Numbered from the stretch's first letter, positions 3,951-40,941 are shown. The stretch is 41,749 bases of DNA from Elusimicrobiota bacterium (GCA_016209025.1 JACQWW010000079.1:1-41749); one strand, 5' to 3'. The notes: generated by a model not told the origin, from the sequence alone. Numbers and translations are program-made.

Positions 3951-4483
3951 TGAATGAACAAGAAAAAAAGCTGGCTTTGGAAGAGCTGGCCGCGGTTTTG
4001 AGCAAATCGCCGATCAGTCTTTTCGCTTCATTCAAAGGGGTGACAACTCCGGAACTTTTTGAAGCGAAGAAAAAAATCAAGAAAGAAAACGCTAAATTCT
4101 GCGTCATTAAGAAATCGCTTTTGGAAAAAGCCTTCCAGAATATCGGCCTTGAAATCAGCGGTGAACAATTTTGGAAAGGCGAGGTGGCCGCCATGACGTG
4201 CTCAAATGGCGACCCGTCCCGCCTGGCCAAACTGCTGGCTCAGTGGGCCGAGCAAAATAAAAATATTGTCATTAAAGGCGGCGTAATATTATCCGGAAAA
4301 AAATGGCTTGACCGCGCCTCGGTCGAGCGGTTGGCCAAGCTCCCCTGCGCCAAGGAGCTTCAGGCCCAGCTGGTCGGCGGTTTGGCCGCTCCCATGGCGC
4401 ATCTGGCCGGCGTTTTAAATGCCACCCTGGTCCGGTTTCTGCTGGTTTTGAAGGCAGTTGAAGCAAACAAAAAAGAATATTGA
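3950..4483 (+). CDS. rplJ: 50S ribosomal protein L10
   Basis: 177 aa directly upstream of rplL, with L10-like length and a C-terminal helix '...AKELQAQLVGGLAAPMAHLAGVLNATLVRFLLVLKAV'. Confidence 0.85.
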   Translation: MNEQEKKLALEELAAVLSKSPISLFASFKGVTTPELFEAKKKIKKENAKFCVIKKSLLEKAFQNIGLEISGEQFWKGEVAAMTCSNGDPSRLAKLLAQWAEQNKNIVIKGGVILSGKKWLDRASVERLAKLPCAKELQAQLVGGLAAPMAHLAGVLNATLVRFLLVLKAVEANKKEY

Positions 4484-4555
4484 ATATGGAATGTTGAATA
4501 TTGGAAGGAAAAAAGAAAATTTTTCCCAATATTCTACATTCAATATTCTATATTC
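4475..4555 (+). repeat. Family A heptamer hairpin A1 (rplJ | rplL gap)
   Basis: 'gaatatt gaatatg gaatgtt gaatatt gg' - loop - 'cc aatattc tacattc aatattc tatattc'. The rplJ TGA stop (4481-4483) lies inside unit 1/2. Confidence 0.9.
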
Positions 4556-4579
4556 TCGCAATTTAAGGAGGTATCTGAA

Positions 4580-4975
4580 ATGCCCGTAGCGACGAAAGAG
4601 GAAATTACCGAGGCCATCTCAAAGCTGACGGTGCTTGATTTGGCGGACTTAGTCAAAATGCTGGAGGACAAATTCGGGGTCAAGGCTGTGGCGGCCGCGG
4701 CGCCGGCCGGCGCCGGACCTGCCGCCGGAGCGCCGGCTTCAGCCGTTCCGGTTGCCGAAGAAAAAACGGAATTCAGCGTGGTCCTGCAATCGGTCGGCGC
4801 CAATAAAATTCCGGTCATCAAGCTGGTCAGGGAAATAACGGGCCTGGGACTCAAGGAATCCAAAGACTTGGTTGAAGGCGCGCCAAAAACCGTCAAAGAA
4901 GGCCTTCCTAAAGCGCAGGCTGAAGAGTTGAGAAAGAAATTGACCGATGCCGGGGCCTCGGCGGAACTGAAATAA
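4580..4975 (+). CDS. rplL: 50S ribosomal protein L7/L12
   Basis: '...[19 protein letters not shown]', an Ala/Pro hinge, then '[67 protein letters not shown]'. SD 'aaggagg' lies upstream. Confidence 0.97.
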
Positions 4976-5006
4976 AAATTTTGCCGAACTTCGTTTGCAA
5001 AATTTT
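4975..5006 (+). repeat. AAAATTTT-stem hairpin F1, immediately after the rplL stop
   Basis: 'aaaattttgc cgaacttcgttt gcaaaatttt' (10-bp perfect stem). No downstream T-tract. Confidence 0.8.
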
Positions 5007-5015
5007 CACAAAAAT

Positions 5016-5058
5016 GTCCGACGGGTCCGACAGGTCTGACATGTCGGACGGGTCTGAC
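5016..5058 (+). repeat. Family B 9-mer array B1, GTCNGACNN x5 (rplL | rpoB gap)
   Basis: 'gtccgacgg gtccgacag gtctgacat gtcggacgg gtctgac'. Confidence 0.9.
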
Positions 5059-5102
5059 GCATTCGCGCTTTCGGGCGCTTTCCGATCTCATGGAGGAATT
5101 TA

Positions 5103-8100
5103 ATGGCCGTTAAAATCAAGCAGATGCTTTTTGAGAAAGCGCCTGTTTATCTCAAAGCTCCCGATCTTCTGGAACTGCAGAAAAATTCCTACGCCAACTT
5201 CCTGCAGAAAGATGTTCCCGGCGAGGCGCGCAAACTTCAGGGGCTTCAAGCCGCCTTTGTGGACCTTTTCCCCATCTCAAACGAGGATGAATCGCTTCTG
5301 CTTGAGTTTATGAATTATTCCGTGGGCGAGTCCCGTTTCTCGGACGCCGGGGAAGCTAAATTTTTCGACAAGTCCTATACGGTTCCCATCAGGGCGAATT
5401 TAAGGCTGATCCACCGCCAGACCTCCGGCAAGGTGAAAGTCATTTCCGAGCAGGAGGTCTTTTTGTGCGACCTGCCTTATATGACCGACGGCGCCTCTTT
5501 CATGATCAACGGCGCCGAGCGGGTCATCGTCAGCCAGCTTCATCGTTCCCCGGGCATTTTCTTCGAAGAAGACGAAGAAAAAAAGGTTTCGCGGTTCGGC
5601 AAGAAGCTTTTTATCGGCCGCGTCATTCCTTACCGGGGCGGCTGGATTGATTTTGAGTTCGATCTCAACAACGTTCTTTTTGCCCGCATTGACAAGCGCC
5701 GGAAGTTTCCTGCCACGGCTCTTTTGCGCGCCTGCGGCCTTGAGACGGACGAAGACATCATCAAGTTTTTTTATACCGTCAAGAATTATCCCATTTCCGC
5801 CGAGCTGCCGGCCGATCAATACGCCGGCCGGATTCTGGCGGCCGACGCCGTTGACTCTGATTCGGGCGAAGTGATTATTGAGGCGGGCCAGCGCCTGGCC
5901 AAGGACGTGCTCGCCAAAATCCAAAAGACCAAAATCAAGGAATTGGCTTTGATCGAATGGGACGAAAAAACGTCCAACGTGACGATTTTAGAGACCCTTA
6001 AAAAAGATCAGCTCAAGTCCCGCAAGGATACCCTCCATTTCCTTTATAAATACATCCGCGGCCAGGAATTCGTCATCCAGCAGCAGGCCGAAGAGTTGAT
6101 GGATAACATGTTTTTCAGCAAAAAATCAAAGCGTTATGACCTGACCCATGTGGGCCGCTACAAGATCATGAAAAAGTTCGGGCTCTTATACGAGTATTTG
6201 GAGTCCCGCAAGCAATGGAGCTTTAAAGCTCCGCCGGCCTCGCGCCGGGAATTGGCGCCCGAAGACATTATCGCCGCGATCATTTACCTGACCTTGTTAA
6301 ACGACGACCGCGAGCGGTGGGAATTTAAAGACCGGACCCTTCTTGTCGGAGTAGATGACATTGATCATCTCGGCAACCGCCGGGTGCGGGCCGTAGGGGA
6401 ACTTTTGGAAAATCAATTCCGCCTGGCTTTGACCCAGATGTCGAGAGTCATCAGGGAGCGCATGGTCCAAGCCCAGGAAAAAAGCGAACTGACCCCCCGC
6501 CAGCTCATCAACGCCTCTGTTTTGAACGGAATCTTAAGGAACTTTTTCGGAAGCTCCCAGCTTTCTCAATTCATGGACCAGATCAATCCCTTGGCGGAGC
6601 TGACCCACAAGCGCCGGCTTTCCGCCTTGGGCCCCGGCGGGCTTCAGAGAAAGCACGCCGGCTTCGAGGTCCGCGACGTGCACCATACCCACTACGGCCG
6701 CATCTGCCCCATCGAAACGCCGGAGGGTCCCAATATCGGCCTTATCACTTCCTTGGCGTTTTATGCCAGGGTCAACGAACTTGGTTTGATCGAGACGCCT
6801 TACCGCAAGGTGGAGAAAGGCCGGGCCACCGGCGAAGTCATCTATTTGACGGCCGACGAGGAAGACGAGGCTGTCATCGCCCAAGCCAACACCATGGTTG
6901 ATGAGAAGGGCAATTTGCTCGGGGACCTGGCATCGTGCCGTTATCGCGGCGATTTTCCCATGGCGGAACCAAAAAATGTCCAATATATGGATATTTCACC
7001 GACCCAGGTTTTTTCGGTGTCAACCGCTCTTTTGCCCTTTTTGGAACACGACGACGCCAACCGCGCCCTTATGGGATCGAACATGCAGCGCCAGGGTGTG
7101 CCGCTGCTTGACCCGGAAAATCCTTTGGTGGCGACCGGCGTTGAGACCAACATCGCCAAGGATTCTCAGGCGGCAATTGTGGCCAAGCGCGCCGGCCGCG
7201 CGGTTTATGTGGACGGCGAACAGATCATCATCCATACCGATGACGCCAAATCGCCGCTTGATGTCTATAAGTTCACGAAATACGAACGGTCCAACCAGGA
7301 TACGGCCGTTGATTACCATCCCATCGTGGCCCACGGCGACCGGGTGGCTTCGGGCGATCCGATCGCCGACGGTCAGTCAACAGCCAAAGGCCAGCTGGCC
7401 TTGGGCAAGAATGTTCTGGTCGCCTTTATGCCCTGGGAGGGTTATAATTTCGAAGACGCTATTTTGGTTTCGGAGCGCCTGGTCAGAGACGACGTTTTCA
7501 AATCCTTTCATATTCAGGAGTTCGAGGTCGAGGCCAGAGAAACCAAGCTCGGCCCGGAGGAGATAACCAGGGACATCCCCAATGTTTCCGCCGAAGCCCT
7601 GGCCCATCTTGATGAGCAGGGCATCGCCGTCGTGGGCACCGAGGTCAGCCATGGGGATATTCTGGTCGGCCGGGTCATTCCCAGGGGCGAAGAGCATTTG
7701 ACGCCCGAGGAGAAGCTCTTGCGCGTGATTTTCGGCAAGAAGGCGGAGGATGTCCAGGACGCCTCCCTGAGAGTTCCGCCGGGCGTGGCCGGCAAGGTCA
7801 TCAAGGTTCAGGTTTTCGTCAGAAAGGAAATCCTCGCCGCCAAGGAAAAGGAGCGATGGAGGCGCGATCTCGACGACCGGGTTCAGGAGGATTTGAAGTT
7901 TATCGAGTCTTTCAAAGACTCGTCCCTTAAGGAACTTGAGGAAAAGAAGAAACAAGGCGCGGTTTCCTCCGAGCAATACCGCCAGGAAAAGCAAGCCGTT
8001 GAGCTTGTGGCCGACAAAAGCAAGCAGGACATTCATGGTTATCGCGACCGGGAACGCGAGAGAATCAAGGCGGGCGACGAGGTGGCGGTCACCGTCAACC

Positions 8101-8876
8101 GCGTCGTCAAGGTATATGTGGCGGCCACCAGGCCTTTGCGCGTCGGCGATAAAGTGGCCGGCCGTCACGGCAATAAGGGCGTTATTTCCAAGATTTTGCC
8201 CATAGAGGATATGCCGAGGCTGCCCGACGGCACGCCGGTGGACATGGTGCTTTCACCCCTTTCCGTGCCGTCGCGCATGAACGTGGGCCAGCTTTTGGAG
8301 ACGATGTTCGGCTGGGCCGCTAAAATGTTCGATGTTCAAATGGTGACGCCGGTTTTTAACGGGGCCATGGAAACCGAGGTCAGGGAGAAGGTTAAAGAGG
8401 CGCGCGAAATGATGATGAAAAAGGGCGTGCCCGAGAAATATCTCCCCGGCGAGGACATGCGTATTACTCTCTATGACGGGCGGACCGGCCAGCCCTTCCT
8501 TGAAAAAATCACCATCGGCTATATGTACGTCATGAAGCTCATTCATGTGGTCGAGGATAAGATCCATGCCAGAAGCACCGGACCATATTCGCTTATCACC
8601 AGGCAGCCTTTGGGCGGCAAGGCCCTTTTCGGGGGCCAGCGTTTGGGCGAGATGGAGGTATGGGCCTTGGAGGCTTATGGAGCGAGTCACACCCTTCAGG
8701 AATTTTTGACGATCAAATCCGCGCATGAGTCTTTCAAAGTCCTGGTGCGCGAACTCCAGGGTTTGGGGCTCGGCGTCGAACTGCTGAGATTAGGCGAGCT
8801 TGAGCCGCAGAAGCCCCCCAAGGCCTCGGATGGCGGCGCTTTGAAAACCAAAGAAAAGGAAGAGGTGAAAAGCTGA
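5103..8876 (+). CDS. rpoB: DNA-directed RNA polymerase beta subunit (apparently lacking a conserved ~23-aa C-terminal segment, see findings)
   Basis: Motifs '[32 protein letters not shown]', '[19 protein letters not shown]', 'NMQRQGVPL', '[13 protein letters not shown]', '[18 protein letters not shown]'. Confidence 0.96.
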   Translation: [1257 protein letters not shown]

Positions 8877-11800
8877 TGGCGCAAACAACGACCAGGCTTG
8901 AAGAAACGACCAGGGAGCTTCTTTTTTCCGCCCGCAAAAAGAAAAAGAAGGCCGGTGATTTTTTCAATTTCATGGATTTTGACGCTATCCGCCTGACCGT
9001 GGCAAGCCCCGATCGCATTAAAAGCTGGTCTTATGGGGAGGTTCGAAAGCCGGAAACCATCAATTACCGGACCTTAAAGCCCGAGCGCGACGGACTTTTT
9101 TGCGAGCGGATTTTCGGCCCGTCGCGCGATTATGAATGCGCCTGCGGCAAATATAAATGGGTGAAATTCAGGGGCATCGTCTGCGACCGCTGCGGCGTGG
9201 AAGTGACTGAGGCCAAGGTCAGGCGCGAGCGCATGGGCCACATTGACCTGGTCGTTCCGGTCGCCCACATTTGGTTTTTAAGAAAGCCGCCATCGCGCAT
9301 CGCCATCGCCCTTGACATGAAGCTGGGCGACCTCATGCGCACCGTTTATTACAAGGAAGACGGCTATCTTGTCCTGGAAAACTTGGAGCAGAACGGCAAG
9401 GTTGTTTTCCGGCGCGGCGATATCATTGATATAGATGAATATCAAAAAGCCAAGGCCGAGTTTGGCGGGCGTTTCAAATGCTCGATCGGCGGCGGCGCGG
9501 TCCAGGACATGCTCGCGGGCCTTGAATTGAAAGAAGAAACCCAGCTCGTGAGAAAGAAGCTTCAAAAGCTCGAGGCCGAAGGCGAGAGAAACCGGCTTAT
9601 CAAGAGGCTCAGAATCCTGGAAGGGTTTTTGCATTCAGAGAGCCGTCCCGAGTGGATGATGCTGACCACCCTGCCGGTTATTCCGCCGGATTTAAGGCCT
9701 CTGGTGCCCTTGGAAGGCGGGCGTTTCGCCACCAGCGATTTAAACGACCTTTATAGAAAAATCATCAACCGCAACAACCGCTTAAAGCACATCGAGCAAT
9801 TGCGCGCCCCGGAAGTCATGATTCACAATGAAAAACGCCTGCTTCAGGATTCGGTGGACGCCTTGATTGAAAACGGCGCCGGCTGGAAGGTGTCTTTGGG
9901 CCCGGGCAACCGGCCTTTAAAATCCCTCTCCGACATCATCAAGGGCAAAGAAGGGCGTTTCCGCCAAAATTTACTGGGCAAACGCGTTGATTATTCGGGC
10001 CGGTCCGTTGTCGTGGTCGGCCCCAAGCTCAAGCTCCATCAATGCGGCCTTCCTAAAGAGATGGCTTTGGAGCTTTTCAAGCCTTTTTTACTGGGCGAGC
10101 TCATCAAGCGCCACAGCGTCACGCTTAAGGCCGCCAGGAAAATGCTGGAAAAGGCCACGGCCGAAGTCTGGGATATCCTGGCTGATCTGACCAAAGATCA
10201 TTTGGTGCTTTTAAACAGAGCGCCGACTCTTCACCGGCTTTCCATTCAGGCTTTTGAGCCGGTTTTAGTCGAGGGTAAAGCCATCCAGCTTCATCCTTTA
10301 ACCTGCCCCGCCTTCAACGCGGACTTTGACGGAGATCAGATGGCGGTTCACGTTCCGCTTTCCTATGAATCTTTAATGGAAGCGAGGCTTCTAATGCTCT
10401 CCTCCCGCAATATTTTTTCTCCGGCCTCAGGCCGGCCAATCGCCCAGCCCAGCCAGGACGTTATTTTAGGGCTTTGCTATCTGACCAAGCCGAAGGCGGG
10501 AGTCATGGGCGAGGGCAGATGCTATTCGTCCGTGGATGAAGTGATCGCCGCTTTTCAGCGGGGGTTCACTTTGCCCAACGCCAAAATAAAAATCATGGGT
10601 TTCAATAAACTTGACGAAGAGCAGCTGGCGCTGGAACAAAAAATGGATCCGAAGCTGTGGAAAGACTGGACCACGGTCGGCCGCGCTATTTTCAACGCGG
10701 TAATTCCCAAGGAGATGGGTTACGTCAACCAAACGATTGATAAAAAGACGCTGGGCGGCATTATCTTGGAGTGTTACCGGACTTTGGGGCATTATCGGAC
10801 CGTCCAGCTTTTGGATGAGGCAAAAAATCTCGGATACCGTTATTCGACTTATTACGGGGTGAGCATTTCCATTTCGGACATGCTGGTGCCGAAAGTCAAA
10901 AAGGAGATCGTGCGCCGGGCTCAGGACAAGGTCAAGGAAATCGAGCGCCAATCCAAAGCCGGAGCCATCACCGAAATGGAGCGCTATAACAAAGTAGTGG
11001 ACATCTGGACCCACGCCACCGATCAAGTGGCGGACAACATGTTCGCCGAGATGCAATCGCGGGAAAAGATGTCGCCCCAGGAGACAGGTTCGCTTTTCAA
11101 TTCGATTTTCATCATGGCTGATTCCGGAGCCCGCGGTTCGCGGGCCCAGGTCCGCCAGTTGGGCGGTATGCGCGGCCTTATGGCTAAGCCGCAAAAAAAG
11201 ATCATGGGCCAGTACGGGGAAATCATCGAAACGCCGGTCATTTCCAATTTCAGGGAAGGGCTCTCTGTTTTGGAGTATTTTATTTCCACGCACGGCGGCC
11301 GCAAAGGCTTGGCCGACACCGCCTTAAAGACGGCCGACGCCGGGTATTTGACGAGGCGGCTGGTGGACGTCACCCATGACGTGGTGGTGGTGGAAGAAGA
11401 TTGCGGCACGATAAACGGCATCAGGATTGCGCCCCTTTATTCCGGGGAAGAAGTCATCGAATCGCTGGAGGAAAGAATCGCGGGCCGCGTCGTTCTGGAA
11501 GACGTCCGTCTTGCCGGCGAAGGCGTCTCGCGGTTGCGGGGCCAGACAAGCAAAGAAAAAGAAGAAAAGGAAAAAATTTTGGCCAAGGCCGGCGAACTTA
11601 TTGATTGGGCCAAGGCAAGGGCGATAGCCAAGTCCGACGTTCCGTTCGTGAGGGTTCGCTCGACTTTGACCTGCGAGGCAAAATACGGCGTTTGCGCGAA
11701 GTGCTTCGGCCTTTCTTTAGCCACCGGCCAAATGGTCGAGGCCGGCGAAGCGGTCGGCATCATCGCGGCCCAGTCCATCGGCGAGCCGGGAACCCAGCTT

Positions 11801-13099
11801 ACCCTAAGGACCTTCCATATCGGCGGCACCGCGGCCCGGGTTGTTTCCAAATCACAGGCTGTTTCAGCCGCCGCCGGAACGGTTGTTTTTAAGAATATCG
11901 AGCTGCTGAAAAGAAAAAGCGGCGAGGTTTTGGTCCATTCGAGAAACAGCGAGATCGCTGTTTTCGATCCGGAAACGAAAACCGAAAAAGAAAGCCACCG
12001 CGTCCCTCATGGGGCCCGCCTCAAAGTCAAAAATTCGGAGAAGGCGCCGGCCGGAACGCTTTTGGCCGAGTGGGATCCTTACGCCCTGCCCATTATGTCG
12101 AAAGTGGAAGGCCAAGTCCGCTATGAAGATATCGAGGAAGGCATCACGACTCATGAGGAGAAAAACAAAATTACCGGACTGACCGAGCGGCGCATTATCG
12201 AACATCGCGAACAAAGAAAACGGCCGAGAATCATCGTGGCGGATCACAAGGGCAAGGAACTTGACGCCTATACCCTGCCGGTGGACACCATCATCGTGAC
12301 GGCCGACGGCGAGCCGGTCGGGCCGGGCGATATTCTGGCAAAAATTCCCCTTGAAGTAAGCATCACCCGCGACATCACCGGGGGGCTGCCCCGCGTTTCC
12401 GAGCTTTTTGAGGCGAGAAGGCCGAAAAATTCAACCGTCATTTCGGAGATTGACGGCGTGGTTTCTTTGGGCACCACGGCCAAGGGCGGCCAGAAAGTGA
12501 TCGTCAGAAACGAGGAAACCGACGTTGTCTGCGAATACAGCATTCCTCAGGGCAAACACCTTATGGTTTACGAAGGAGACCGCGTCGGGGTCGGCGAGGC
12601 TTTGACCGACGGCCCTATCAATCCCCACGATATCCTGAGGGTCAAGGGCCTCAAGGAATGCCAGGAATATCTTGTCTGCGCCATTCAGGAGGTTTACCGG
12701 CTCCAAGGCGTGATGGTCAACGACAAGCATATCGAGCTTATCGTGCGCGAGATGCTGGAAAACGTGCGAATAACCAAAGCCGGCGCAACGCATCTATTGG
12801 TGGGCGAAATCGTCAATCGTTTTGAATTTGAAGAGGAAAACGAGCAGGCGATCAAGGCCAAAAGGGAGCCGGCCGAAGCCCAGGTGGTGCTTTTGGGCAT
12901 CACTAAAGCGGCGCTTTCGTCGAGAAGCTTTATTTCCGCGGCCAGCTTTCAGGAAACAACCAGGGTTTTGACCGACGCGGCCGTCAGCGGCAAGTTGGAT
13001 TTCCTGCGGGGACTCAAAGAAAACGTCATTATCGGGCGTTTGATTCCGGCCGGCACGGGCCTCGCCGCCAGACAGCAGGCAGCGCTGGAGCACAAATGA
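8876..13099 (+). CDS. rpoC: DNA-directed RNA polymerase beta' subunit
   Basis: Zn finger 'CACGKY...CDRCGVEV', catalytic '[14 protein letters not shown]', '[18 protein letters not shown]', '[19 protein letters not shown]'. The ATG overlaps the rpoB TGA. Confidence 0.97.
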
Positions 13100-13121
13100 A
13101 AATTTTACCAGGTAAAATTTT
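13099..13121 (+). repeat. AAAATTTT-stem hairpin F2, overlapping the rpoC stop
   Basis: 'tg aaaattttacc a ggtaaaatttt' (11-bp perfect stem, 1-nt centre). Confidence 0.8.
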
Positions 13122-13188
13122 CGTTAGTTGTTTGTCGTTAGTTGTTTGTCGTTTTGCGATTAACAACCAACGACCGACGACCAACGAA
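13122..13188 (+). repeat. Heptamer hairpin D (rpoC | rpsL gap)
   Basis: 5' arm 'cgttagt tgtttgt cgttagt tgtttgt cgttttg', 3' arm 'aacaac caacgac cgacgac caacgaa'. By eye, 20 of 25 positions are Watson-Crick and 2 more are G.U. Confidence 0.8.
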
Positions 13189-13221: not shown

Positions 13222-13647
13222 ATGCCGACCACCAGCCAACTTTTAAGAATTTTCCGCAGTAAGCGCGCCTACCGTTCCAAGTCGCCGGCTCTGCGCGAAT
13301 GTCCTCAGCGCCGCGGGGTTTGCCTGCGTGTTTACACCACCACGCCGAAAAAACCGAACTCCGCTCTGCGCAAGGTGGCCCGCGTCAAGCTGACCTCCGG
13401 CATAGAGGTGACGGCCTATATCCCGGGCATCGGCCACAATCTTCAGGAACACTCGATCGTCTTGGTGCGCGGCGGCCGGGTAAAAGATCTTCCTGGGGTG
13501 CGCTATCATATCATCCGGGGCGTTTTCGACTGCAGCGGCGTCGATGGCCGCCGGCAGGGCCGCTCCAAATACGGGGCCAAGCAGCCCAAGGAAACGGCAG
13601 CCGGCAAAACGGCCGCGGCGCCGGCCGGGGCAGGAGCTACAAAGTGA
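13222..13647 (+). CDS. rpsL: 30S ribosomal protein S12 (with an Ala-rich C-terminal tail)
   Basis: 'MPTTSQLLR...[70 protein letters not shown]'. Confidence 0.97.
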
Positions 13648-13723
13648 ATATTGAATATGGAATATTGAATATTGGGAAGAATAAAAAATTTCTCCAATAT
13701 TCTACATTCAACATTCTACATTC
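13646..13723 (+). repeat. Family A heptamer hairpin A2 (rpsL | rpsG gap)
   Basis: 'gaatattgaatatggaatattgaatattggg' - loop - 'ctccaatattctacattcaacattctacattc'. It begins on the last 2 nt (13646-13647) of the rpsL TGA (13645-13647). Confidence 0.9.
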
Positions 13724-13743
13724 ACCCCTTTCTTGGAGGTTTT

Positions 13744-14214: not shown

Positions 14215-14220
14215 AAGAAT

Positions 14221-14306
14221 GACGCGGCGACGGGGAGACGCGGTGACGCGGGGAAAGTTTGGTTTTGGATTTTTTAATCTCCGCGTCCCCGCGTCCCCGT
14301 GTCTCC
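14221..14306 (+). repeat. Octamer hairpin C (rpsG | fusA gap)
   Basis: 5' arm 'gacgcggc gacgggga gacgcggt gacgcggg g', loop 'aaagtttggttttggattttttaat', 3' arm 'ctccgcgtcc ccgcgtcc ccgtgtct cc'. The arms are largely complementary. Confidence 0.85.
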
Positions 14307-14321
14307 GAGTCAGGAGCATCG

Positions 14322-16406: not shown

Positions 16407-16425
16407 GTCCGACAGGTCGGACAGG
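16407..16425 (+). repeat. Family B 9-mer array B2, 2 units (fusA | tuf gap)
   Basis: 'gtccgacag gtcggacag g', immediately after the fusA TAA. Confidence 0.7.
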
Positions 16426-17641: not shown

Positions 17642-17645
17642 AGCT

Positions 17646-17729
17646 GGAATATAGAATGTGGAATATAGAATATTGGAGCAAGAAAGACCTCTTTGTTTTC
17701 CTACATTCAACATTCAATATTCAATATTC
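17646..17729 (+). repeat. Family A heptamer hairpin A3 (tuf | rpsJ gap)
   Basis: 'ggaatatagaatgtggaatatagaatattgg' - loop - 'cctacattcaacattcaatattcaatattc'. Confidence 0.9.
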
Positions 17730-17740
17730 TGAGTAATTCT

Positions 17741-18112
17741 ATGACAGCGAAGGAAGGCAAAGAAAAATCGTCGGCTGCGGAAGCGGCCGCCAAAGCCGTT
17801 TTACCGTCGGAGCAGCACATCCGCATCAGGCTGCGCTGTTACGATCACAAGATGCTCGATGAGTCGGTTGAAAAAATTGTGGCGACGGTGCGGCGCACCG
17901 GCGGGGTGATCATAGGGCCCGTTCTTTTGCCCACCAAGCGCAAGCTTTACACGGTGCTGCGTTCCCCTCATGCGGACAAAAAATCAAGGGAACAGTTCGA
18001 GTTGCGCATTCATAAACGGCTGATTGATCTTAAAGAGCCGACGCCGAGAACGATCGACGAATTGATGAAACTTGATCTGCCGCCCGGCGTGGACGTGGAA
18101 ATCAAACTATGA
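17741..18112 (+). CDS. rpsJ: 30S ribosomal protein S10 (with a short N-terminal extension)
   Basis: '[71 protein letters not shown]'. The ATG at 17741 is the first start after repeat A3. Confidence 0.92.
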
Positions 18113-18134
18113 AAATTTTACCCGGTAAAATTTT
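18112..18134 (+). repeat. AAAATTTT-stem hairpin F3, overlapping the rpsJ stop
   Basis: 'tg aaaattttacc c ggtaaaatttt', nearly identical to F2. Confidence 0.8.
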
Positions 18135-18150
18135 CAGGTGCGCAAGAACA

Positions 18151-18192
18151 TCTGACCCGTCAGACATGTCTGACTCGTCTGACAAGTCTGAC
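18151..18192 (+). repeat. Family B 9-mer array B3, 5 units (rpsJ | rplC gap)
   Basis: 'tctgac ccgtcagac atgtctgac tcgtctgac aagtctgac'. Confidence 0.9.
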
Positions 18193-23533: not shown

Positions 23534-23538
23534 AGGCT

Positions 23539-23622
23539 GGAATATAGAATGTTGAATATTGAATATAGGAACACAGGCGGTCTTTTTTCTTCCCTATATT
23601 CCATATTCCATATTCCATATTC
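23539..23622 (+). repeat. Family A heptamer hairpin A4 (rplN | rplX gap)
   Basis: 'ggaatatagaatgttgaatattgaatatagg' - loop - 'cctatattccatattccatattccatattc'. Confidence 0.9.
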
Positions 23623-23643
23623 TCGGCAACACGAGGCATTCCA

Positions 23644-24855: not shown

Positions 24856-24971
24856 GAGAATGTTGAATGTTGAATATAGAATATAGAATGAAAAAAACGA
24901 GAGATAAAAGCCATTTTTGCATTTTGTGTTTCCGTTTCCGTCCTACATTCTACATTCCATATTCTACATTC
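24856..24971 (+). repeat. Family A heptamer hairpin A5, long-loop variant (rpsN | rpsH gap)
   Basis: 'gagaatgttgaatgttgaatatagaatatagaatg' - ~50 nt - 'cctacattctacattccatattctacattc'. The 5' flank 'caaagggagaatgttgaatgttgaat' is shared with A6. Confidence 0.88.
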
Positions 24972-24983
24972 GAGGTCTAAAAA

Positions 24984-25379: not shown

Positions 25380-25489
25380 GAGAATGTTGAATGTTGAATG
25401 TTGAATATAGGATGAAAACAACGAGGGAGGAAAGCCGTTTTTGTATTTTTCATTCCTGTCCTACATTCTACATTCCATATTCTACATTC
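25380..25489 (+). repeat. Family A heptamer hairpin A6, long-loop variant (rpsH | rplF gap)
   Basis: 'gagaatgttgaatgttgaatgttgaatatagg' - ~45 nt - 'cctacattctacattccatattctacattc'. Confidence 0.88.
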
Positions 25490-30604: not shown

Positions 30605-30637
30605 TCCGACCCGTCAGACCTGTCAGACATGTCCGAC
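30605..30637 (+). repeat. Family B 9-mer array B5, 4 units (infA | rpmJ gap)
   Basis: 'tccgaccc gtcagacct gtcagacat gtccgac'. Confidence 0.9.
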
Positions 30638-30770: not shown

Positions 30771-30774
30771 AAGC

Positions 30775-30859
30775 GAGAATGTGGAATGTTGAATATGGAA
30801 TATTGGGGAGGAATGACTTTCTATTTCTTCCAGCATTCAACATTCAATATTCAATATTC
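30775..30859 (+). repeat. Family A heptamer hairpin A7 (rpmJ | rpsM gap)
   Basis: 'gagaatgtggaatgttgaatatggaatattgggg' - loop - 'ccagcattcaacattcaatattcaatattc'. Confidence 0.9.
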
Positions 30860-30890
30860 ACGTTCATGAATTTTGTCAATGGAGGTTTAA

Positions 30891-32398: not shown

Positions 32399-32403
32399 CA
32401 AGA

Positions 32404-32516
32404 GAGAATGTCGAATGTGGAATATGGAATATGGGGTGAAAAAAAGAAAAAAAAGAAAATGCGAGGGCCGCTTTTATTCTTTTCGTCCAATATTCTACAT
32501 TCCATATTCTATATTC
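32404..32516 (+). repeat. Family A heptamer hairpin A8, long-loop variant (rpsD | rpoA gap)
   Basis: 'gagaatgtcgaatgtggaatatggaatatgggg' - ~45 nt A-rich loop - 'ccaatattctacattccatattctatattc'. Confidence 0.88.
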
Positions 32517-32541
32517 GAGTTTTAAGAGGAGGAATGAAAAC

Positions 32542-33597: not shown

Positions 33598-33956
33598 TTA
33601 AAACTTATGCGCGGCGCAAGCTCGGGGTCCGGCCGGCTCATCGCAAGATGATGATGAGACAGCTGGCTGTCAGCCTCATTCATCATGAAAAGATCACGAC
33701 GACCGGCGCCCGGGCCAAGGAGCTCAAGGTTTACGCCGAGAGAATGATTTCACGGCTGACCAGGCTCAAAGATCCCCTGCGGCAGGCCCGGCAAGCCGCC
33801 CGGTGGCTCGCCCCGAACGGCTTGGATGTGTCAAAAAAGCTTCGTGAGACAATCGTACCCCGCTACCGCGGCAAAACCGGCGGCTACTTAAGAATCACGG
33901 CCCTGCCGCCGCGCCGCTCGGACCGCGCCTGTTTGAGCCGGGTGGAACTGGTGTGA
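33594..33956 (+). CDS. rplQ: 50S ribosomal protein L17
   Basis: 'RKLGVRPAHRKMMMRQLAVSLIHHEKITTTGARAKELKVYAERMI', 'GGYLRI'. The ATG overlaps the rpoA TGA (ATGA). Confidence 0.94.
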   Translation: MIKTYARRKLGVRPAHRKMMMRQLAVSLIHHEKITTTGARAKELKVYAERMISRLTRLKDPLRQARQAARWLAPNGLDVSKKLRETIVPRYRGKTGGYLRITALPPRRSDRACLSRVELV

Positions 33957-33968
33957 AAATTTTTCAGG

Positions 33969-34971
<1,003 letters not shown>

Positions 34972-34973
34972 AA

Positions 34974-35015
34974 TCAGACGGGTCGGACAGGTCCGACATG
35001 TCGGACCTGTCCGAT
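34974..35015 (+). repeat. Family B 9-mer array B7, 5 units (mreB | mreC gap)
   Basis: 'tcagacgg gtcggacag gtccgacat gtcggacct gtccgat'. Confidence 0.9.
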
Positions 35016-35022
35016 AAAGGAA

Positions 35023-35877: not shown

Positions 35878-36395
35878 TGCTGCGCTTAATTGGCCTGGCT
35901 TTCGCCGTCGTTATTCTGGAGGTTTTTTATAATCTGGCGGGCGGCCGGATGGTTTTTTATTTTTCACCGCTTTTAGCGCTTCAGTCGGTCGTTTTTATCG
36001 GCATGCTCCTGGGTCCCATGGCCGGGCTTGGCTGGGGTTTGGCGGCCGGCCTTCTTGAGGATCTTTGTTTGGTTACGCAAAGCGGCGCCTTCGGCCTGAC
36101 GCCCATCGTTTATCTTTGGATCGGCTGGCTCAGCGGCCGGCTTATGTGCGGCCGCGTCGATACCGCCAGCTGGGCCGTCAGGATGATCGCCACCGGCGCG
36201 GGATGGCTTTCCGGGATCGGCCTGGGGGCGCTTTTAAGCGCGATTTACGCCGGACCCTTGCCGGTGCTTTCGCGTCCTTATTTATTGAGCGGGGCCGTCA
36301 CCCTGGCCGTTCAAATGATGCTGGCGCCCGGGGTCGGAGCCGTCCTGGTGAAAATTCTTCAACCGCGAGGAAAGTTCGATGGCTACACTTTCTGA
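35877..36395 (+). CDS. mreD: Rod-shape protein MreD (polytopic membrane protein)
   Basis: 172-aa hydrophobic ORF between mreC and mrdA. GTG overlaps the mreC stop. Assignment rests mainly on position. Confidence 0.7.
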   Translation: MLRLIGLAFAVVILEVFYNLAGGRMVFYFSPLLALQSVVFIGMLLGPMAGLGWGLAAGLLEDLCLVTQSGAFGLTPIVYLWIGWLSGRLMCGRVDTASWAVRMIATGAGWLSGIGLGALLSAIYAGPLPVLSRPYLLSGAVTLAVQMMLAPGVGAVLVKILQPRGKFDGYTF

Positions 36396-38193
36396 GAAAG
36401 CCGCCTGGCTGAGGCTGCTTATGTTTTCGTTTTTCGCGGTTTTCGGCCTGCGTCTTTTTTTTCTTCAGGTCGTTTTCGGCCGCCATTACCGCCTTCTGGC
36501 CGAAAGAAACCGTTTTCAGATTTTTTACCGCCAAGCGCCGCGCGGAACCATTCTGGACCGGACCGGTTATCCCTTGGCATCCAATATCGGCGTTTTCAAC
36601 CTGTATTTCAACCCTAATTTCTTGGTGGAGGATGCCGAAGACCGGGTCAGGGTTATTTCCGGAATTTTAAATTTAAAGCTCGACGACTTGCGGCGCGCCG
36701 TCAAGACGGCCAGAGTCGGCCGCAAAACCAGCCTGGCGGCAAGGCAGATTTCCCCGGAAGCGGCCTTTCGTTTTTTTGAGAAGCAGGAGTCTTATCCCGA
36801 ATTTTTTCTGACCTCGGAGTCTTTGAGGTATTATCCTTTAGGGGAAGCCTTTGCCCATGTCGTCGGTTATTTGTCGCGCATACGTTCAAGGGTAGAGTTC
36901 GAAAAACTCAAAGATCAAGGCTACCGCTATGATTCATGGCTGGGAGGCTATGGTTTGGAGAAGCTTTTCGAGCAGCACTTGCGCGGCTGTGACGGGGCCG
37001 TTTTGATCGAGGTTGACGTTCATGGCCGGCCTCTGTCGCAAAGCCGTCCGGCGCAGGAGGCGAGCGGGGAAAAGCGAAGCCAGGCCGGCGTCTCCCTTGT
37101 TGAGGATTCCTATCCCGGCAATGACATGGAATTGACGATTGATCATCGTTTGATTATGGCGGCCCACCAAGCGCTCAAAGCTTCGTCTTCGGGCGCCGGT
37201 TCGGTGGTGGCCCTTGATCCGCGCAGCGGGGCAGTGCGCGCCTTGGTTTCCACTCCCGGCTTCGACCCCAACGGCTATATCCGCCTTACCCTGGAGAAAC
37301 CCGAAGTGCTTTTGCGCGCGGAATTTCCCAGGGCCCTGACCGGTCTTTATCCGCCCGGCAGCGTATTTAAAGTCATCACCGCGATCGCGGCCCTGGAAAA
37401 GGGGCTTGATCCGGCAAGGCGTTTCCGCTGCATGGGCAAATTCGCGCTTCCGGGCCGGACCTTTAAGTGTTGGAAGGAAGAAGGGCATGGGTCCCTCGAC
37501 TTCATCGAAGGAATTCGCAACTCATGCGATGTTTATTTCTATAACGCAGGGCTTTTTGCGGGCGGCGAAGCCATCAGTTCCTGGGCGCTCAAGTTTTCAT
37601 TGGGGCGTTCCATAACGGTCAAAGAATTTCCAGAGTGGTCCAAAAAGGGCTTTATTCCGACGCCCCGATGGAAGGAGGAGAAAAAAAAGGACATCTGGCG
37701 TCCGGGCGATACGCTGAATTTAGCCATCGGCCAGGGCGAGGTTCTGACGTCGCCCCTTCAGCTGGCCGCACTTTTCGCCATGCTGGCTGGCCGCGGCCGG
37801 CTGGCCCAGCCTTATATCATCGAGGCTTTGAAAAATCCGTCGGGCGGGGTTTTTTGGAGGAACAAACCCGTCCTGGCCGATGATTTTAAAATTCCGGCGG
37901 TTTCGGATAAGACATGGCAGCTACTCGAGGCGGGGCTGCGTTCCGTCGTCGTCGAGGGGACGGGCCGCGGGGCCAATATCGCCGGCTACGATATTTACGG
38001 CAAGACCGGCACGGCGCAGAATCCCCTGGGCAAAGATCACGCTCTTTTCGCCTGCTACCTTAAGGATGCGTCCGGCACGCCGCGCCTGGCCGTAAGCGTC
38101 GTGGTTGACAACGGGGGCCAGGGCTCCGTTGCCGCGGTGCCGGTTGCCAGGCGGGTGCTCGAAGAGTTCATTAAAGAGGAATTCGGTGGCTAA
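36379..38193 (+). CDS. mrdA: Penicillin-binding protein 2 (elongasome transpeptidase)
   Basis: N-terminal TM segment, 'RGTILDRTGYPLA', SxxK 'PPGSVFKVITA', 'RNSCDVYF', 'YGKTGTAQ'. Confidence 0.9.
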   Translation: MATLSEKAAWLRLLMFSFFAVFGLRLFFLQVVFGRHYRLLAERNRFQIFYRQAPRGTILDRTGYPLASNIGVFNLYFNPNFLVEDAEDRVRVISGILNLKLDDLRRAVKTARVGRKTSLAARQISPEAAFRFFEKQESYPEFFLTSESLRYYPLGEAFAHVVGYLSRIRSRVEFEKLKDQGYRYDSWLGGYGLEKLFEQHLRGCDGAVLIEVDVHGRPLSQSRPAQEASGEKRSQAGVSLVEDSYPGNDMELTIDHRLIMAAHQALKASSSGAGSVVALDPRSGAVRALVSTPGFDPNGYIRLTLEKPEVLLRAEFPRALTGLYPPGSVFKVITAIAALEKGLDPARRFRCMGKFALPGRTFKCWKEEGHGSLDFIEGIRNSCDVYFYNAGLFAGGEAISSWALKFSLGRSITVKEFPEWSKKGFIPTPRWKEEKKKDIWRPGDTLNLAIGQGEVLTSPLQLAALFAMLAGRGRLAQPYIIEALKNPSGGVFWRNKPVLADDFKIPAVSDKTWQLLEAGLRSVVVEGTGRGANIAGYDIYGKTGTAQNPLGKDHALFACYLKDASGTPRLAVSVVVDNGGQGSVAAVPVARRVLEEFIKEEFGG

Positions 38194-39494
38194 ATCCAAG
38201 GAATTTATCAGCCCGATTTTAGTCGGCCGCCTTGAAGAGGGACGCCCTTCTTTGCGCTATCAGTTCTTCGGCCTTGACGTGATGCTTGCGGCGATCTGCG
38301 CGCTTTTGCTTGGAATCGGGGCCATAGTGGTCTACACTTCGCTTTACGGCTCAACGGCTTTTGAAAGTCTATGGATGCGGCATTTGACGGCCCTGGGCAT
38401 CGCCGGCCTGGTTTGTCTGGTCATGTTTTTTTTGCCCCAATCGGCCGTGGCGGAAGCCGGCGGCCTTATTTACGGTTTTTCCATTCTGCTTTTAATCATG
38501 GTGCTTTTTTTCGGCAAGGTTATTCATGGCTCAAAATCCTGGTTTTCTATGGGGCCTTTTCAATTCCAACCCAGTGAATTCGCCAAATTCGCCGTCATTA
38601 TATATATGTCCAGCGTGACGGTGCGCGGCCGGGAAAAAGACCCCCTGCTTTCCTGGGGCTGCCGGTTTCGGGTGATCGGCCTGGCCGCCTTGGCCCTGGT
38701 CCTAGTGCTGTCCCAGCACGATGTTTCAGGCGCGATCAGCTTTTGTTTTATTGCCCTGACCTACGCCTGGCTGCTGGAGATGTTCTCAGGCCGGTTTATC
38801 GGGGCCATGGCTGTTTTTGGGATTTTGAGTTTTTTAAGCCTTCTTTGCCACATCACCGCCGGCTTGAATTTGAAAGATTCGGCGGCCCTGTCCGCTTTTT
38901 TGATTCGTTGGGGATTCGGGCCCGGCGCCGCCTTTGCCAAAGGACTTCTGTGGGCCGGCGCCATGCTGGCCTTAAGCGCAGCCCTTTACCGGCTTTTAAA
39001 AGGGCTTTTCGTCCTTTCTCCAAAAACATCGTGGCTTTGGACTCTTGCCATCGCCGCTATTCTGATCGGGTCAAACGGGGCCGGATATTTGGGCTGGAAA
39101 GCGCTCAAAGGCTATCAAAAAAACAGATTGGTCAGTTTTGTCTTTCCCCGCGCCGATCCGCTCGGCTCCGGATATAATGTGACTCAGTCAAAAATCACCG
39201 TCGGTTCCGGCGGTTTTATCGGCAGGGGCATTCTTCTCGGCAGTCAGGCAAGCCTGGGTTTTTTGCCGGAAAGGCATACTGATTTCGCTTTCGCCGCCCT
39301 GGGTTGTGGCTTTGGGACTTTTCGGCTTGTGGTTCGGCGAGGTGGCCGTCAACATTGCCTGCGTGCTGGGCCTTTTTCCGGTTTTAGGCATCGGCCTGCC
39401 CTTTATTTCTTACGGAGGATCAAGGCTGGTGATCAATGGAATGGAGATCGGACTGCTTTTGGCGATTTCAAGGGAGTTCTATGTGTACCGATAA
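38186..39494 (+). pseudogene. rodA: SEDS-family RodA, frame broken near 39300 by loss of about 36 codons (or an assembly error)
   Basis: The frame from GTG 38186 reads '...FQPSEFAKFAVIIY...GYNVTQSKITVGSGGFIGRG...LPERHTDFAFAAL' and then becomes non-homologous. The +1 frame (track ORF 39306-39494) holds the conserved C-terminus '...VAVNIACVLGLFPVLGIGLPFISYGGSRLV...'. The segment expected between them (E. coli 'AEELGLVG...RAQTTFGRVMAGG') is missing. Confidence 0.7.
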
Positions 39495-40908
39495 AAAAGT
39501 TGAAATCATTCTTGAAAAAGCGGCGGCCCTTTCCATGCGGCCTTCTCAGTATGCCGGCTGGGAAATCGGTTCAACGGCAGAGAAAACCGGGGAAGCGGCC
39601 AGGCGCATCGCCCTGGTGTGCCCTCGGCCATATGAAAAAGCCATGCAGGATGATTGCTTGCTCGATCTTTACGGCGGTCTGGCCGCCTGCTGTAGCGTAT
39701 GCCCGGAAAGAATTTTTTTACCCGGCCAGGATTACTTGGAAAAACTCGCTTTTTTCGGGGAAACCAGAAAATGGTTTTCCCTTGAAAGCAAGGCGCCTTT
39801 GGAGTTTTTTGACGATTTTATCCTTTTTCCGGGCGCCGGGGCCGACGGCGATCTTGGCCGCCCCGCTTCGCAGCCCCATTCCGGAGGTCTGGGACGTTTG
39901 GAGTCCCAGAGGGACGTGACGAGCTTCGGGGACGGATCTACGGCCGGGGGCCTTGGCCGCCGGCTTGAGCAGGCGGTTCGCGATTTGTGCCGGGATTCTC
40001 AAAAGCGGCTATGGGAAGCGGCTCTAATCAATCAAGGCGCCGGACAAAGCGGCGCTTCGGATATCATGGGCCGGCTGGGCTTGGAGGCCGGGACCGGGAA
40101 TCTTCCCCTTATCGCCTATCACAGCTGGGAAAGGACGTTTGCGGCAGCCGGTCCGGCGCAAGACGCCGGCGGCCGGCGGATTTACGCCGGGACGGCAAGA
40201 CGAACCGCTTCTTTGCGGGCACGGCTTGTGCGCCACGGCTGGTCGCGTTTCGTCTCCCACCTGGAACAGATTCAGATTTTTAAAAACGCCGTTTTGCTGG
40301 CCGGCCTGCCGGCGGCGCGAAGCCGGACGAAGAAGCCGAGGCTGAAAATGAGCTTTGGGCCGGCGGTCGGAGTCGGCTGGGAATCAAGCTCGGAATTTTT
40401 CGATATCATGCTCGAAGAGCCGGTCCAAATTGAGACTTTCAGCGAACGGCTGAAATCCTGCCTGCCGCTTGGCTATGAGCTTGGCTGGGTGGGCCGCATT
40501 CCGGTTTATTTTCCCAGTCTCGAAGAAAGCGCCAACCGGGCTGATTTTTGGATTGAGGAAAAATATGAGCCCGGAGGGGTTGATTGGCAAAGGCTTTTTG
40601 AATGGTTTCGCCGCCTTTCCCAGGAAGGCCGCGAGCCGCTGATCGTTAAAAAGGAAAAACCGGGGAAAAAAATAGACCTCATCAATGTCGCCGAAATCGT
40701 CGCCGCCGTCTCCCTGGGAATTTCGCAAAGCGGCGGCAATGTCGGGGTCAAGCTGTCTTTGCGCTATGGGCCTAAAAAAAATTTGAAGCCTGAAAAGATT
40801 TTGGAAATCAGTCTGGGATTGACGCCGGAGTTCATTGAGACCCGGTTGAGGATTTGCCGGACGGCTTTGGCCCTGGAGTCCCGCGACGGCAGACTTAGGT
40901 ATCTTTAG
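39481..40908 (+). CDS. Radical-SAM-linked protein (DUF2344/TIGR03936-like C-terminal domain) fused to a degenerate N-terminal fragment. No radical-SAM core is present
   Basis: C-terminal half 'SRFVSHLEQIQIFKNAVLLAGLPAARSRTKKPRLKMSFGPAVGVGWESSSEFFDIMLEE' resembles the DUF2344 pattern (RF[IL]SHLDL..RA.RRAGLP..YS.GF.P.PK[IM]SF..AL..G..S..E). The N-terminal ~130 aa resemble the start of the partner rSAM family ('RPSQYAGWEIG', 'CPRPYEKAM', 'FSLESKAPLEFFD'). The ATG at 39481 follows 'agggag'. Confidence 0.5.
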   Translation: MCTDKKVEIILEKAAALSMRPSQYAGWEIGSTAEKTGEAARRIALVCPRPYEKAMQDDCLLDLYGGLAACCSVCPERIFLPGQDYLEKLAFFGETRKWFSLESKAPLEFFDDFILFPGAGADGDLGRPASQPHSGGLGRLESQRDVTSFGDGSTAGGLGRRLEQAVRDLCRDSQKRLWEAALINQGAGQSGASDIMGRLGLEAGTGNLPLIAYHSWERTFAAAGPAQDAGGRRIYAGTARRTASLRARLVRHGWSRFVSHLEQIQIFKNAVLLAGLPAARSRTKKPRLKMSFGPAVGVGWESSSEFFDIMLEEPVQIETFSERLKSCLPLGYELGWVGRIPVYFPSLEESANRADFWIEEKYEPGGVDWQRLFEWFRRLSQEGREPLIVKKEKPGKKIDLINVAEIVAAVSLGISQSGGNVGVKLSLRYGPKKNLKPEKILEISLGLTPEFIETRLRICRTALALESRDGRLRYL

Positions 40909-40941
40909 TCGGACATGTCCGACGGGTCGGACAAGTCTGAC
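40908..40941 (+). repeat. Family B 9-mer array B8, 4 units (DUF2344-like gene | RNase E/G gap)
   Basis: 'gtcggacat gtccgacgg gtcggacaa gtctgac'. The first g is the last base of the upstream TAG stop. Confidence 0.9.

Follow-up and report, generated by a model that had tools for sequence, protein, structure and literature searches.

Results

Gene order and census of the intercistronic gaps

We analysed a 41,749-nt stretch of DNA (hereafter the window) that constitutes one entire contig of a metagenome-assembled genome (MAG) of an Elusimicrobia bacterium (GCA_016209025.1, JACQWW010000079.1:1-41749), with the focus on hairpin-forming elements that are built from tandem units of 7-9 nt and lie between its genes. 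The gene order starts with a 23S rRNA gene without its 5' part, a 5S rRNA gene and an orphan open reading frame (ORF). A single co-directional run follows, comprising rplJ-rplL-rpoB-rpoC-rpsL-rpsG-fusA-tuf, the S10, spc and alpha operons and rplQ, and continuing through mreB-mreC-mreD, PBP2, a RodA-like ORF and a DUF2344 ORF into the start of an RNase E/G gene. A Pfam scan of ten ORFs of the window confirmed L10, MreB, MreC, DUF2344 and RNase E/G; the other gene identities were read from the translations.

Tandem Repeats Finder (TRF) detects an array with a period of 7-10 nt, or double that period, in 18/18 gaps that span 35 nt or more on the way from rplJ to the RNase E/G gene, bearing out the assertion of the initial annotation that every gap longer than about 35 nt holds such an element. 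Thirty TRF arrays fall in 1.9 kb of intergenic DNA versus 8 in 36.7 kb of coding DNA. Counting of the units, a check that the annotation had proposed genome-wide, gives the same picture within the window: GAATRT occurs at 13.5 per kb in gaps versus 0.35 per kb in genes (about 40-fold), and GTCNGAC at 12.6 versus 0.10 per kb (about 120-fold). The annotated family counts are likewise reproduced, with eight copies of family A (GAATRTN units), eight of family B (GTCNGAC units), one each of families C (GACGSGGN units) and D (CGTTAGT and TGTTTGT units), and four of family E (GAAGNNN units) in the rRNA region. Unit periods are 7 nt in A, D and E, 8 nt in C and 9 nt in B, and each arm holds 2-5 copies, as annotated; in many arms a double-unit period (14 or 18 nt) outscores the single one. 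The elements sit only in slots where an insertion destroys neither gene nor ribosome, namely in the interval from a stop codon to the ribosome-binding site that follows it, at surface-exposed 23S helix tips and in the 23S-5S spacer, and every copy seen lies within transcribed DNA.

An independent Logan assembly (L001, run SRR12113406) is 100% identical to the window over 2,039 nt that include B1 and the 3' arm of A1; the elements are therefore present in reads, and the concern that they might be absent from them is settled. Scans for other signals were negative. No predicted intrinsic terminator on the + strand coincides with an element, except a weak one at the tail of B3, and we reject an identity as intrinsic (Rho-independent) terminators, which combine a GC-rich stem with a U run. 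The promoter scan returned nothing coincident with the elements, the only Rfam 15 matches in the window at gathering score are 23S and 5S rRNA, and a literature search with the literal unit strings found no paper.

Folding and anatomy of families A to D

Folding energies were compared with those of dinucleotide shuffles and expressed as z-scores. The hairpins of families A, C and D, 80-125 nt in size, reach z-scores of -3.7 to -7.2 and fold in a regular pattern of six pairs followed by one unpaired base on each side. Stems in families A, C, D and E are 28-35 bp long with a mismatch at every unit. Family B folds less strongly (z -1.3 to -5.7). The proposed folding check thus came out positive, with B the weaker case. 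The observation that all copies share one orientation relative to transcription proved nearly empty of content, since the elements, as quasi-palindromes, look alike when reverse-complemented, and both strands fold equally well: the sense strand folds better in 16/28 elements, with a mean difference of -0.8 kcal/mol. When G-U versus A-C asymmetry and strand folding were used as a test for selection at the RNA level, neither an asymmetry nor a sense-strand G-U bias was found.

Family A is highly uniform. All eight copies have exactly 4+4 heptads, which fits copying of one founder rather than separate slippage at each site, and 39/40 core columns (those for G, A, A, T, -, T and for the complementary bases) do not vary among them. 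Variation lies at the unit's fifth position, which is R in 5' arms and Y in 3' arms, and at its seventh (N). The 32 R:Y oppositions in register comprise 13 Watson-Crick pairs, 8 G-U and 11 A-C, so that this position displays no covariation and pairs no better than a random pairing of the observed bases; at the internal N:N oppositions, 20/24 are mismatched. When the variable bases were re-dealt within each arm, equal or better hairpins were obtained for 8/8 copies (a fraction of 0.76-1.0 of the shuffles). The periodic mismatches are thus not being removed, and they may be actively kept. Flanks and loops divide the family into the subfamilies A1/A2, A3/A4 and A5/A6/A8 with A7. A5 and A6 are near-duplicates of a cassette of about 120 nt that share arms, loop and flanks, which indicates that whole cassettes are copied between junctions. 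The alignment of the eight copies reveals no target-site duplication and no conserved insertion target.

Family B is built differently. Its unit, GTC-N-GAC, is itself palindromic, and the family can fold because each unit is. After shuffling of the three variable bases per unit, only B7 beats chance (p = 0.002), and the other 7/8 elements do not. It had been annotated as a single array folding on its own near-palindromic units; the palindromic nature of the units stands, but the folding is less convincing than in the other families and only B7 is arranged for pairing. A direct array of palindromic units is the most fitting description of family B.

Related cassettes in and beside the 23S rRNA

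Three of the family E elements (E1-E3) are cassettes of 113-146 nt, 91-95% identical over 113-140 nt, that occupy three sites, each with an outer GC-rich stem. E2 is inserted at the tip of a hairpin at covariance-model position ~1218 (cmscan). From the E. coli 23S rRNA sequence we take this hairpin to be helix 45, and we assign the hairpin tip that carries E3 to the helix 63 region on the same basis. E2 is thus an extra stem-loop at one of the two helix tips (25 and 45) that define an intervening-sequence site, and E3 lies at a second variable tip. The literature on 23S intervening sequences (IVS) gives helices 25 and 45 as standard sites and describes removal by RNase III (PMC4990558, PMC2801512). 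E2, and likewise E3, resembles such sequences in being an extended stem-loop inserted at a variable helix tip; the inserts differ in that they are made of tandem heptads and that a single cassette family serves three or four sites, the 23S-5S spacer among them. Comparison of the four E copies, which are few sequences for this purpose, yields one compensatory pair. A search of a phage collection returned no match to the E3 cassette.

Where E1 lies within the 23S gene is not certain, as the start of the contig appears to be chimeric: bases 1-95 repeat 262-356 (23S) exactly and lead directly into the E cassette, and 23S model positions 15-565 are absent from the contig. This start is probably a repeat-induced chimera or the trace of two rRNA operon variants.

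Turnover of units among relatives

Loci of related genomes were retrieved through homologues of S7 and ranked by S7 identity, and seven genomes were compared at the rpsG/fusA junction. The closest relative (GCA_016180815.1, 85% S7 identity) has compact gaps, and such elements were found neither at the corresponding junctions nor in its 23S-5S spacer; of its four large gaps, one contains a weak array according to TRF. That spacer contains GTCATTCTGAGCGAAGCGAAGAATC (L252, 415-445), a sequence also present in an unrelated metagenome contig (L241) that may be another widespread small repeat. Relatives with 67-76% S7 identity share the architecture but build it from other units, in part at the same junctions, and several of their elements reach z-scores of -4 to -9. 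The units are GGGTCAAAA and GGTTCAAAA, mostly single-arm, in L125; GAGTGCT and GAGTACC with CACTCAG in L127; AGTTCYA and GTCCAAA, plus a GAATATA element, in L129; GTGAATAAR in L130; and of the ACGCGAAT type in L131. L130 has the same unit family in two places, its 23S-5S spacer and its rpsG/fusA gap. In L129 one 3' arm mixes TTTGGAC and TTGGAAC units, which indicates that unit variants arise and spread in place.

At rpsG/fusA, 5/7 genomes have a tandem-unit element, each with a different unit, and six further assemblies, which stem from different projects, show the same architecture. The initially annotated pattern of one architecture shared by several sequence families is real and extends to relatives with still other units. 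The architecture is a property of the clade; neither sequence nor position is conserved, and the load per genome ranges from none to all gaps. We looked for unit-number polymorphism at the strain level, and the relatives' duplicate contigs were identical or differed only at contig ends. Two peculiarities of gene order were also seen, an L3-S19-L2-L4-L23-L22 order in L130 (14374-17590) and an S14 gene between rpoC and rpsL in L131 (9420-9605).

Occurrence beyond the clade

Species-representative genomes were scanned for three GTCNGAC units at 9-nt spacing, which gave at least 120 loci against an estimated chance expectation of about 10-20 sites. Among the matches listed, arrays have up to 31 units and come mainly from Verrucomicrobiota, Lentisphaerota, Planctomycetota and Bacteroidales, with some from Armatimonadota, Acidobacteriota and others; some, for example those in Streptomyces, are probably coding repeats. 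In L071 (745-1550), L009 and L030 (Lentisphaerae MAG SIG83), GTCTGAC arrays lie inside a longer repeat with conserved flanks of about 45 nt that recurs every 170-350 nt, which looks like a different, larger family built round the same unit.

A scan of metagenomes for four GAATRTN units also gave at least 120 loci. Most of those listed are direct repeats of single-stranded type, and 17/120 have at least three complementary cores within 200 nt. Among the listed matches L132-L251, the inverted partner lies downstream 17 times and upstream twice, a preference for GAATRT first that is independent of strand. One of these loci, L232, belongs to a distant organism (MreB 48% and PBP2 27% identical) and has a cluster of frr, an M50 protease gene, a tRNA synthetase gene and mreBCD. 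It carries a GAATAT hairpin between frr and the M50 protease gene (2174-2277), a further array before mreB (5079-5116) and a (CAACNNN)9 hairpin between mreC and mreD (6942-7055), which is D-like with its arms in the opposite order to family D of the window. The cyanobacterium Kovacikia minuta contains a 27-nt exact match to family A, a GAATGTT array directly beside a GGGGAGT heptamer array, and a search of a plasmid collection with the A6 cassette gave only a 27-nt cyanobacterial heptamer match. The GAATRT and GTCNGAC cores are thus widespread in other phyla, as plain direct arrays.

Comparison with described repeats

Vioque is said to have described in 1997 short tandemly repeated repetitive (STRR) elements inside an RNase P RNA gene. 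In cyanobacteria, STRR sequences consist of 7-bp units in tandem and form hairpins, among other places in the interval that separates hupS from hupL, with suggested roles in transcript stability and translational coupling (PMC2670836). The elements of the window share with them head-to-tail units of about 7 nt, a strong restriction to non-coding DNA, several families in one genome (five here), intergenic or intercistronic sites with hairpins between cistrons, and insertion into a helix of a structural RNA gene; the GAATGTT array in Kovacikia is a family A unit in a cyanobacterium. They differ in occurring in the phylum Elusimicrobia, in having 8- and 9-nt units too, in being nearly all inverted pairs with a fixed 4+4 unit count, and in occupying every large gap of a ribosomal super-operon as well as sites inside 23S rRNA. 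The host is not a heterocystous cyanobacterium, and the canonical CCCCAGT, TTGGTCA and CAACAGT units are not those of the window.

Two other heptamer systems are close. Xanthomonas GGGAATC arrays form 70-75 convergent pairs per genome that are capable of stem-loops (Rehm et al., 2015; PMC4692102). Like the present elements they are intergenic, mostly transcribed and variable in length between related species; unlike them they are G-rich and quadruplex-forming, are not reported in rRNA, and mostly keep their positions in both of the species that were compared, in contrast to the turnover of positions and units seen here. Beggiatoaceae have TAACTGA repeats inside ribosomal protein operons, upstream of fusA, L3 and S4, usually without a Shine-Dalgarno sequence, for which S1, Csp or CsrA were proposed as binders (MacGregor, 2015; PMC4679880). 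Both systems place heptamer arrays close to start codons and are patchy across phyla, and the D-like CAACTGA/CAACNNN units of L232 resemble TAACTGA; the Beggiatoaceae arrays, however, are almost all direct (one indirect repeat in 170 sets), with one dominant unit per genome. Heptamer repeats near start codons in Nostoc alter reporter expression (bioRxiv 10.1101/2022.06.06.494920).

Repetitive extragenic palindromic (REP) sequences, bacterial interspersed mosaic elements (BIME) and REP doublets forming hairpins (REPIN) are short intergenic palindromic repeats of high copy number, spread within a genome, often as inverted-doublet hairpins of about 100 nt, and REP effects on mRNA stability are known. 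The hairpins of the window are likewise imperfect palindromes of this size. In contrast, REP arms are not tandem repeats, REPs have a conserved GTAG and depend on a gene for a REP-associated tyrosine transposase (RAYT), and REP families persist long within a lineage. The 5' GTAG is absent from the 5' arms of family A, on which ground we reject REP/REPIN identity, and the CTAC seen in their 3' arms is a by-product of ...TTC-T-ACATTC unit junctions. No RAYT (IS200/IS605-like) gene is evident in the ORF list of the window, ten ORFs of which were covered by the Pfam scan. Miniature inverted-repeat transposable elements of the Correia, ERIC or RUP type were rejected as well, as terminal inverted repeats with target-site duplication were not seen in the eight A copies.

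The initial annotation did not recognise the elements as a described repeat class and gave REP/BIME and STRR as the nearest analogies. The former view is too strong, as intergenic heptamer arrays, including inverted hairpin pairs, have been described in all three heptamer systems; as to the analogies, STRR is closely alike, but REP/BIME falls with the 5' GTAG test. On the sequence evidence, we place the elements among the STRR-type heptamer repeats already described, as a variant and not as a class of their own. New features are that every large gap is occupied, that whole cassettes are copied between junctions, that the same kind of cassette sits IVS-like at 23S helix tips, and that the variable bases are not tuned for pairing.

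Coordinates of the elements and other features of the contig

Table 1. Tandem-unit elements and associated hairpins, in coordinates of the window
Element	Location and composition	Position	Strand	Evidence
E1	cassette, GAAGNNN heptads and outer GC stem	99..241	+	95% identical to E3 over 140 nt; -40 kcal/mol
E2	cassette, in 23S hairpin tip	873..985	+	cmscan insert at model ~1218; 91-92% identical to E1 and E3
E3	cassette, 146 nt in place of 16 model positions, 23S hairpin tip	1553..1698	+	cmscan; -49.9 kcal/mol
E4	hairpin, 23S-5S spacer	2899..2976	+	81-83% identical to E1-E3; fold
A1	rplJ/rplL, 4+4 GAATRTN heptads; rplJ stop codon within 5' arm	4474..4556	+	z -7.2
Inverted repeat	AAAATTTT, right after rplL stop, upstream of B1	4974..5008	+	
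B1	rplL/rpoB, five GTCNGAC(NN) units	5016..5058	+	z -2.2
Hairpin	TGAAAATTTTACC-AGG-TAAAATTTTC, beginning in rpoC stop codon	13098..13121	+	
D	rpoC/rpsL, (CGTTAGT TGTTTGT) units and complementary 3' arm	13120..13188	+	z -5.9
A2	rpsL/rpsG; first unit supplies rpsL TGA stop	13644..13725	+	z -4.9
C	rpsG/fusA, four GACGSGGN octamers, loop, complementary units	14220..14312	+	z -5.7
B2	fusA/tuf, two units	16407..16422	+	z -3.3
A3	tuf/rpsJ	17643..17734	+	z -3.7
Hairpin	AAAATTTT, at rpsJ stop, upstream of B3	18111..18136	+	
B3	rpsJ/rplC, five units	18151..18192	+	z -2.9
A4	rplN/rplX	23536..23627	+	z -5.2
B4	rplX/rplE, array reaching start codon	23975..24015	+	z -1.3
A5	rpsN/rpsH, near-duplicate of A6 including loop and flanks	24857..24978	+	z -4.1
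A6	rpsH/rplF	25382..25489	+	z -4.7
B5	infA/rpmJ	30605..30637	+	z -2.3
A7	rpmJ/rpsM	30774..30868	+	z -5.2
A8	rpsD/rpoA	32406..32518	+	z -5.6
B6	rplQ/mreB	33969..34002	+	z -1.9
B7	mreB/mreC, complementary variable bases, perfect 16-bp stem	34982..35015	+	z -5.7; p = 0.002
B8	DUF2344/RNase E/G	40908..40941	+	z -4.2

Two further short motifs recur in the window (Table 1 gives the elements themselves). TGAAAATTTT occurs nine times versus 0.67 expected, on the + strand at 13097, 18110, 23956, 24637, 31314 and 33954 and on the - strand at 4999, 18127 and 27373. All six + strand copies start exactly at a TGA stop codon, some copies build GAAAATTTTAC...GTAAAATTTTC hairpins, and the motif is found ahead of B and D elements, never A; it also follows stop codons in the relatives L122, L125 and L127. 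CGAAGCGAGG is present four times as an exact motif (18214, 26484, 30641 and 34004), each 8-15 nt before the start codon of rplC, rpsE, rpmJ and mreB, respectively. A similar motif precedes rpsC in L127, and from its placement CGAAGCGAGG may be an extended ribosome-binding motif.

Several genes of the contig deserve comment. The mreB region (34020-34971) consists of two ORFs in different frames that match positions 1-37 and 63-325 of the Pfam MreB profile, so that about 25 profile positions are missing, by internal deletion plus frameshift or by assembly error. At 38105-40908, a RodA/FtsW-domain ORF, whose domain covers only residues 62-246 of 604, overlaps by about 480 nt the DUF2344 ORF, which lies in another frame and whose domain covers only residues 260-452 of 490; gene boundaries or frames are doubtful here. 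Between 5S rRNA and rplJ sits an ORF (3162-3950; 262 aa) whose N-terminus resembles a signal peptide. Pfam gave no match to it, and the protein database returned only the ORF itself as homologue; relatives have a similar-sized ORF at the same place. A homologue search with this ORF, aimed at the relatives' rRNA operons, retrieved none of them, and L10 homologues led to the nearest relative only.

Discussion

Origin and role of the elements

The initial annotation left a choice between a generative or mobile origin and selection for a structural role. Copied cassettes (A5/A6 and E1-E3), double-unit periodicity and turnover between relatives fit the former, and the double-unit periods in particular fit growth by tandem duplication. 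We favour an explanation in which the elements are essentially self-propagating or neutral repeats, kept where insertion is tolerated, with secondary effects in RNA, and give it about an even chance of being correct. A 7-9-nt unit would be multiplied by replication slippage, often two units at once, and the second arm would be made or corrected through fold-back template switching. Finished cassettes of about 90-145 nt (the A and E families) could then be copied to other sites by a copy mechanism or gene conversion. In RNA they would form stems of about 30 bp, made imperfect by a mismatch wherever two units meet, acting in rRNA as an expansion or excisable intervening sequence and in polycistronic mRNA as a possible target of double-strand-specific cleavage or a block to 3' exonucleases. 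Such effects would be tolerated or occasionally co-opted by-products, not the elements' reason to exist. We found no sign of selection on pairing at either the R:Y or the N:N oppositions, and shuffles do equally well or better in 8/8 A and 7/8 B elements.

Four observations speak against this explanation. On this one contig, no transposase, other mobilising gene or target-site duplication was seen. Arm length stays at about 28-36 nt regardless of unit length. Repeated occupancy of the same junctions by unrelated families could reflect selection for a hairpin, not mere tolerance. The main loose end is the invariant core of family A beside two freely varying positions per unit, which neutral decay does not predict; it suggests either sequence-specific recognition or shuffling among a few founder unit variants, and it also fits out-of-register conversion among few founder variants in a young family.

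Some of these features lend weight to an alternative, unlikely overall but worth serious attention, in which the hairpins are selected as RNA punctuation and kept as sites at which RNase III, or RNase E/G in combination with 3' exonucleases, would cut or halt. The ~38-kb rRNA/ribosomal protein/rpoBC/mre transcript would be split into segments with their own half-lives and translation, and the same signal would excise the 23S inserts; early mRNAs of phage T7 and REP-stabilised mRNAs of E. coli offer parallels. Full occupancy of the 18 large gaps, stems whose length of about 30 bp would suffice for double-strand-specific cleavage, the presence of cassettes built alike both at a known intervening-sequence site and in the 23S-5S spacer, the single family that L130 uses in rRNA and mRNA spacers, junctions reoccupied by different families at constant arm length, and the lack of identity with intrinsic terminators are all in keeping with it, as are mismatches that look preserved, fitting tuned rather than perfect double-stranded RNA. 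The nearest relative nevertheless does without any such elements at the same junctions, the pairing lacks covariation and a sense-strand G-U preference, the variable bases are not arranged for pairing, and single-arm arrays (L125, most of family B) with z-scores near 0 fill the same slots; the selected structural role that had been put forward thus stays conjectural. Core positions that are conserved as sequence and not as pairs would be accounted for if the arrays were binding sites for an RNA-binding protein controlling translation initiation of the next cistron, such as ribosomal protein S1, a cold-shock-domain protein (with a seven-nucleotide footprint) or a CsrA-like factor. The hairpin would then compete with a protein-coated single-stranded form. 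Arrays end 0-25 nt before start codons and in relatives often run up to the ATG without a Shine-Dalgarno sequence, the metagenome arrays listed are mostly of the single-stranded, direct type, and the same proposal was made for Beggiatoaceae TAACTGA upstream of fusA, L3 and S4 (PMC4679880). We nonetheless think this improbable: one operon with five unrelated families, whose periods are 7, 8 and 9 nt, would call for several specificities, close relatives have entirely different units, and in the window the element is followed by an ordinary GGAGG-like site for most of the downstream genes.

The equivalence of both strands in folding energy raises the further possibility that RNA is irrelevant and that the arrays or cruciforms act as DNA, binding a nucleoid protein, gyrase or a hairpin-specific tyrosine transposase (REP/RAYT-like), or affecting replication and recombination. 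The GAATRT-first arrangement (17 to 2 among the matches listed, on either strand), the recurrence of CTAC in the 3' arms of family A, and a size and inverted-doublet form that recall REPINs would agree with such a role. Yet periods of 7, 8 and 9 bp do not match the DNA helical repeat, the ORF list and the Pfam scan of ten ORFs yielded no RAYT or IS200-like gene in the window, element 5' ends have no conserved GTAG and every copy seen is transcribed, which leaves the idea with a slim chance only. An assembly or synthetic artefact has practically none. The odd contig start, with its duplicated bases entering an E cassette, is in its favour, but the independent assembly is identical over 2 kb including two elements, copies differ at variable positions and six other assemblies have the same architecture; apart from the first ~240 nt of the contig, the artefact is effectively refuted.

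Wider significance

A bolder proposal, to which we assign a low probability, joins origin and function: a dedicated mechanism in this clade would keep writing tandem-unit hairpins into transcribed spacers, where they would be read as universal RNA punctuation, cut from 23S rRNA as IVS, and used to segment a giant transcript for rRNA, ribosomal proteins, RNA polymerase and cell shape. Since nothing but the architecture (about 30 bp, mismatched at regular intervals) would be read, the sequence of the units could drift freely. If this were true, the GAATRT, GTCNGAC and CAACNNN cores shared across phyla would point to a common reader or writer protein.

Repeats of this kind have a practical consequence in that assemblies break at them: a chimeric start is probable for the present contig, and Logan contigs stop within elements. 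Cyanobacteria, Xanthomonas and giant sulfur bacteria have been known for decades to carry heptamer-type repeats, for which neither a function nor an origin is generally accepted. The present locus is a clean natural experiment, with full occupancy of its gaps, relatives that carry from none to many elements, and the same architecture in rRNA. Together with its graded relatives, it is suited to two questions, namely whether such repeats are selfish or RNA-processing signals, and how 23S intervening sequences originate.

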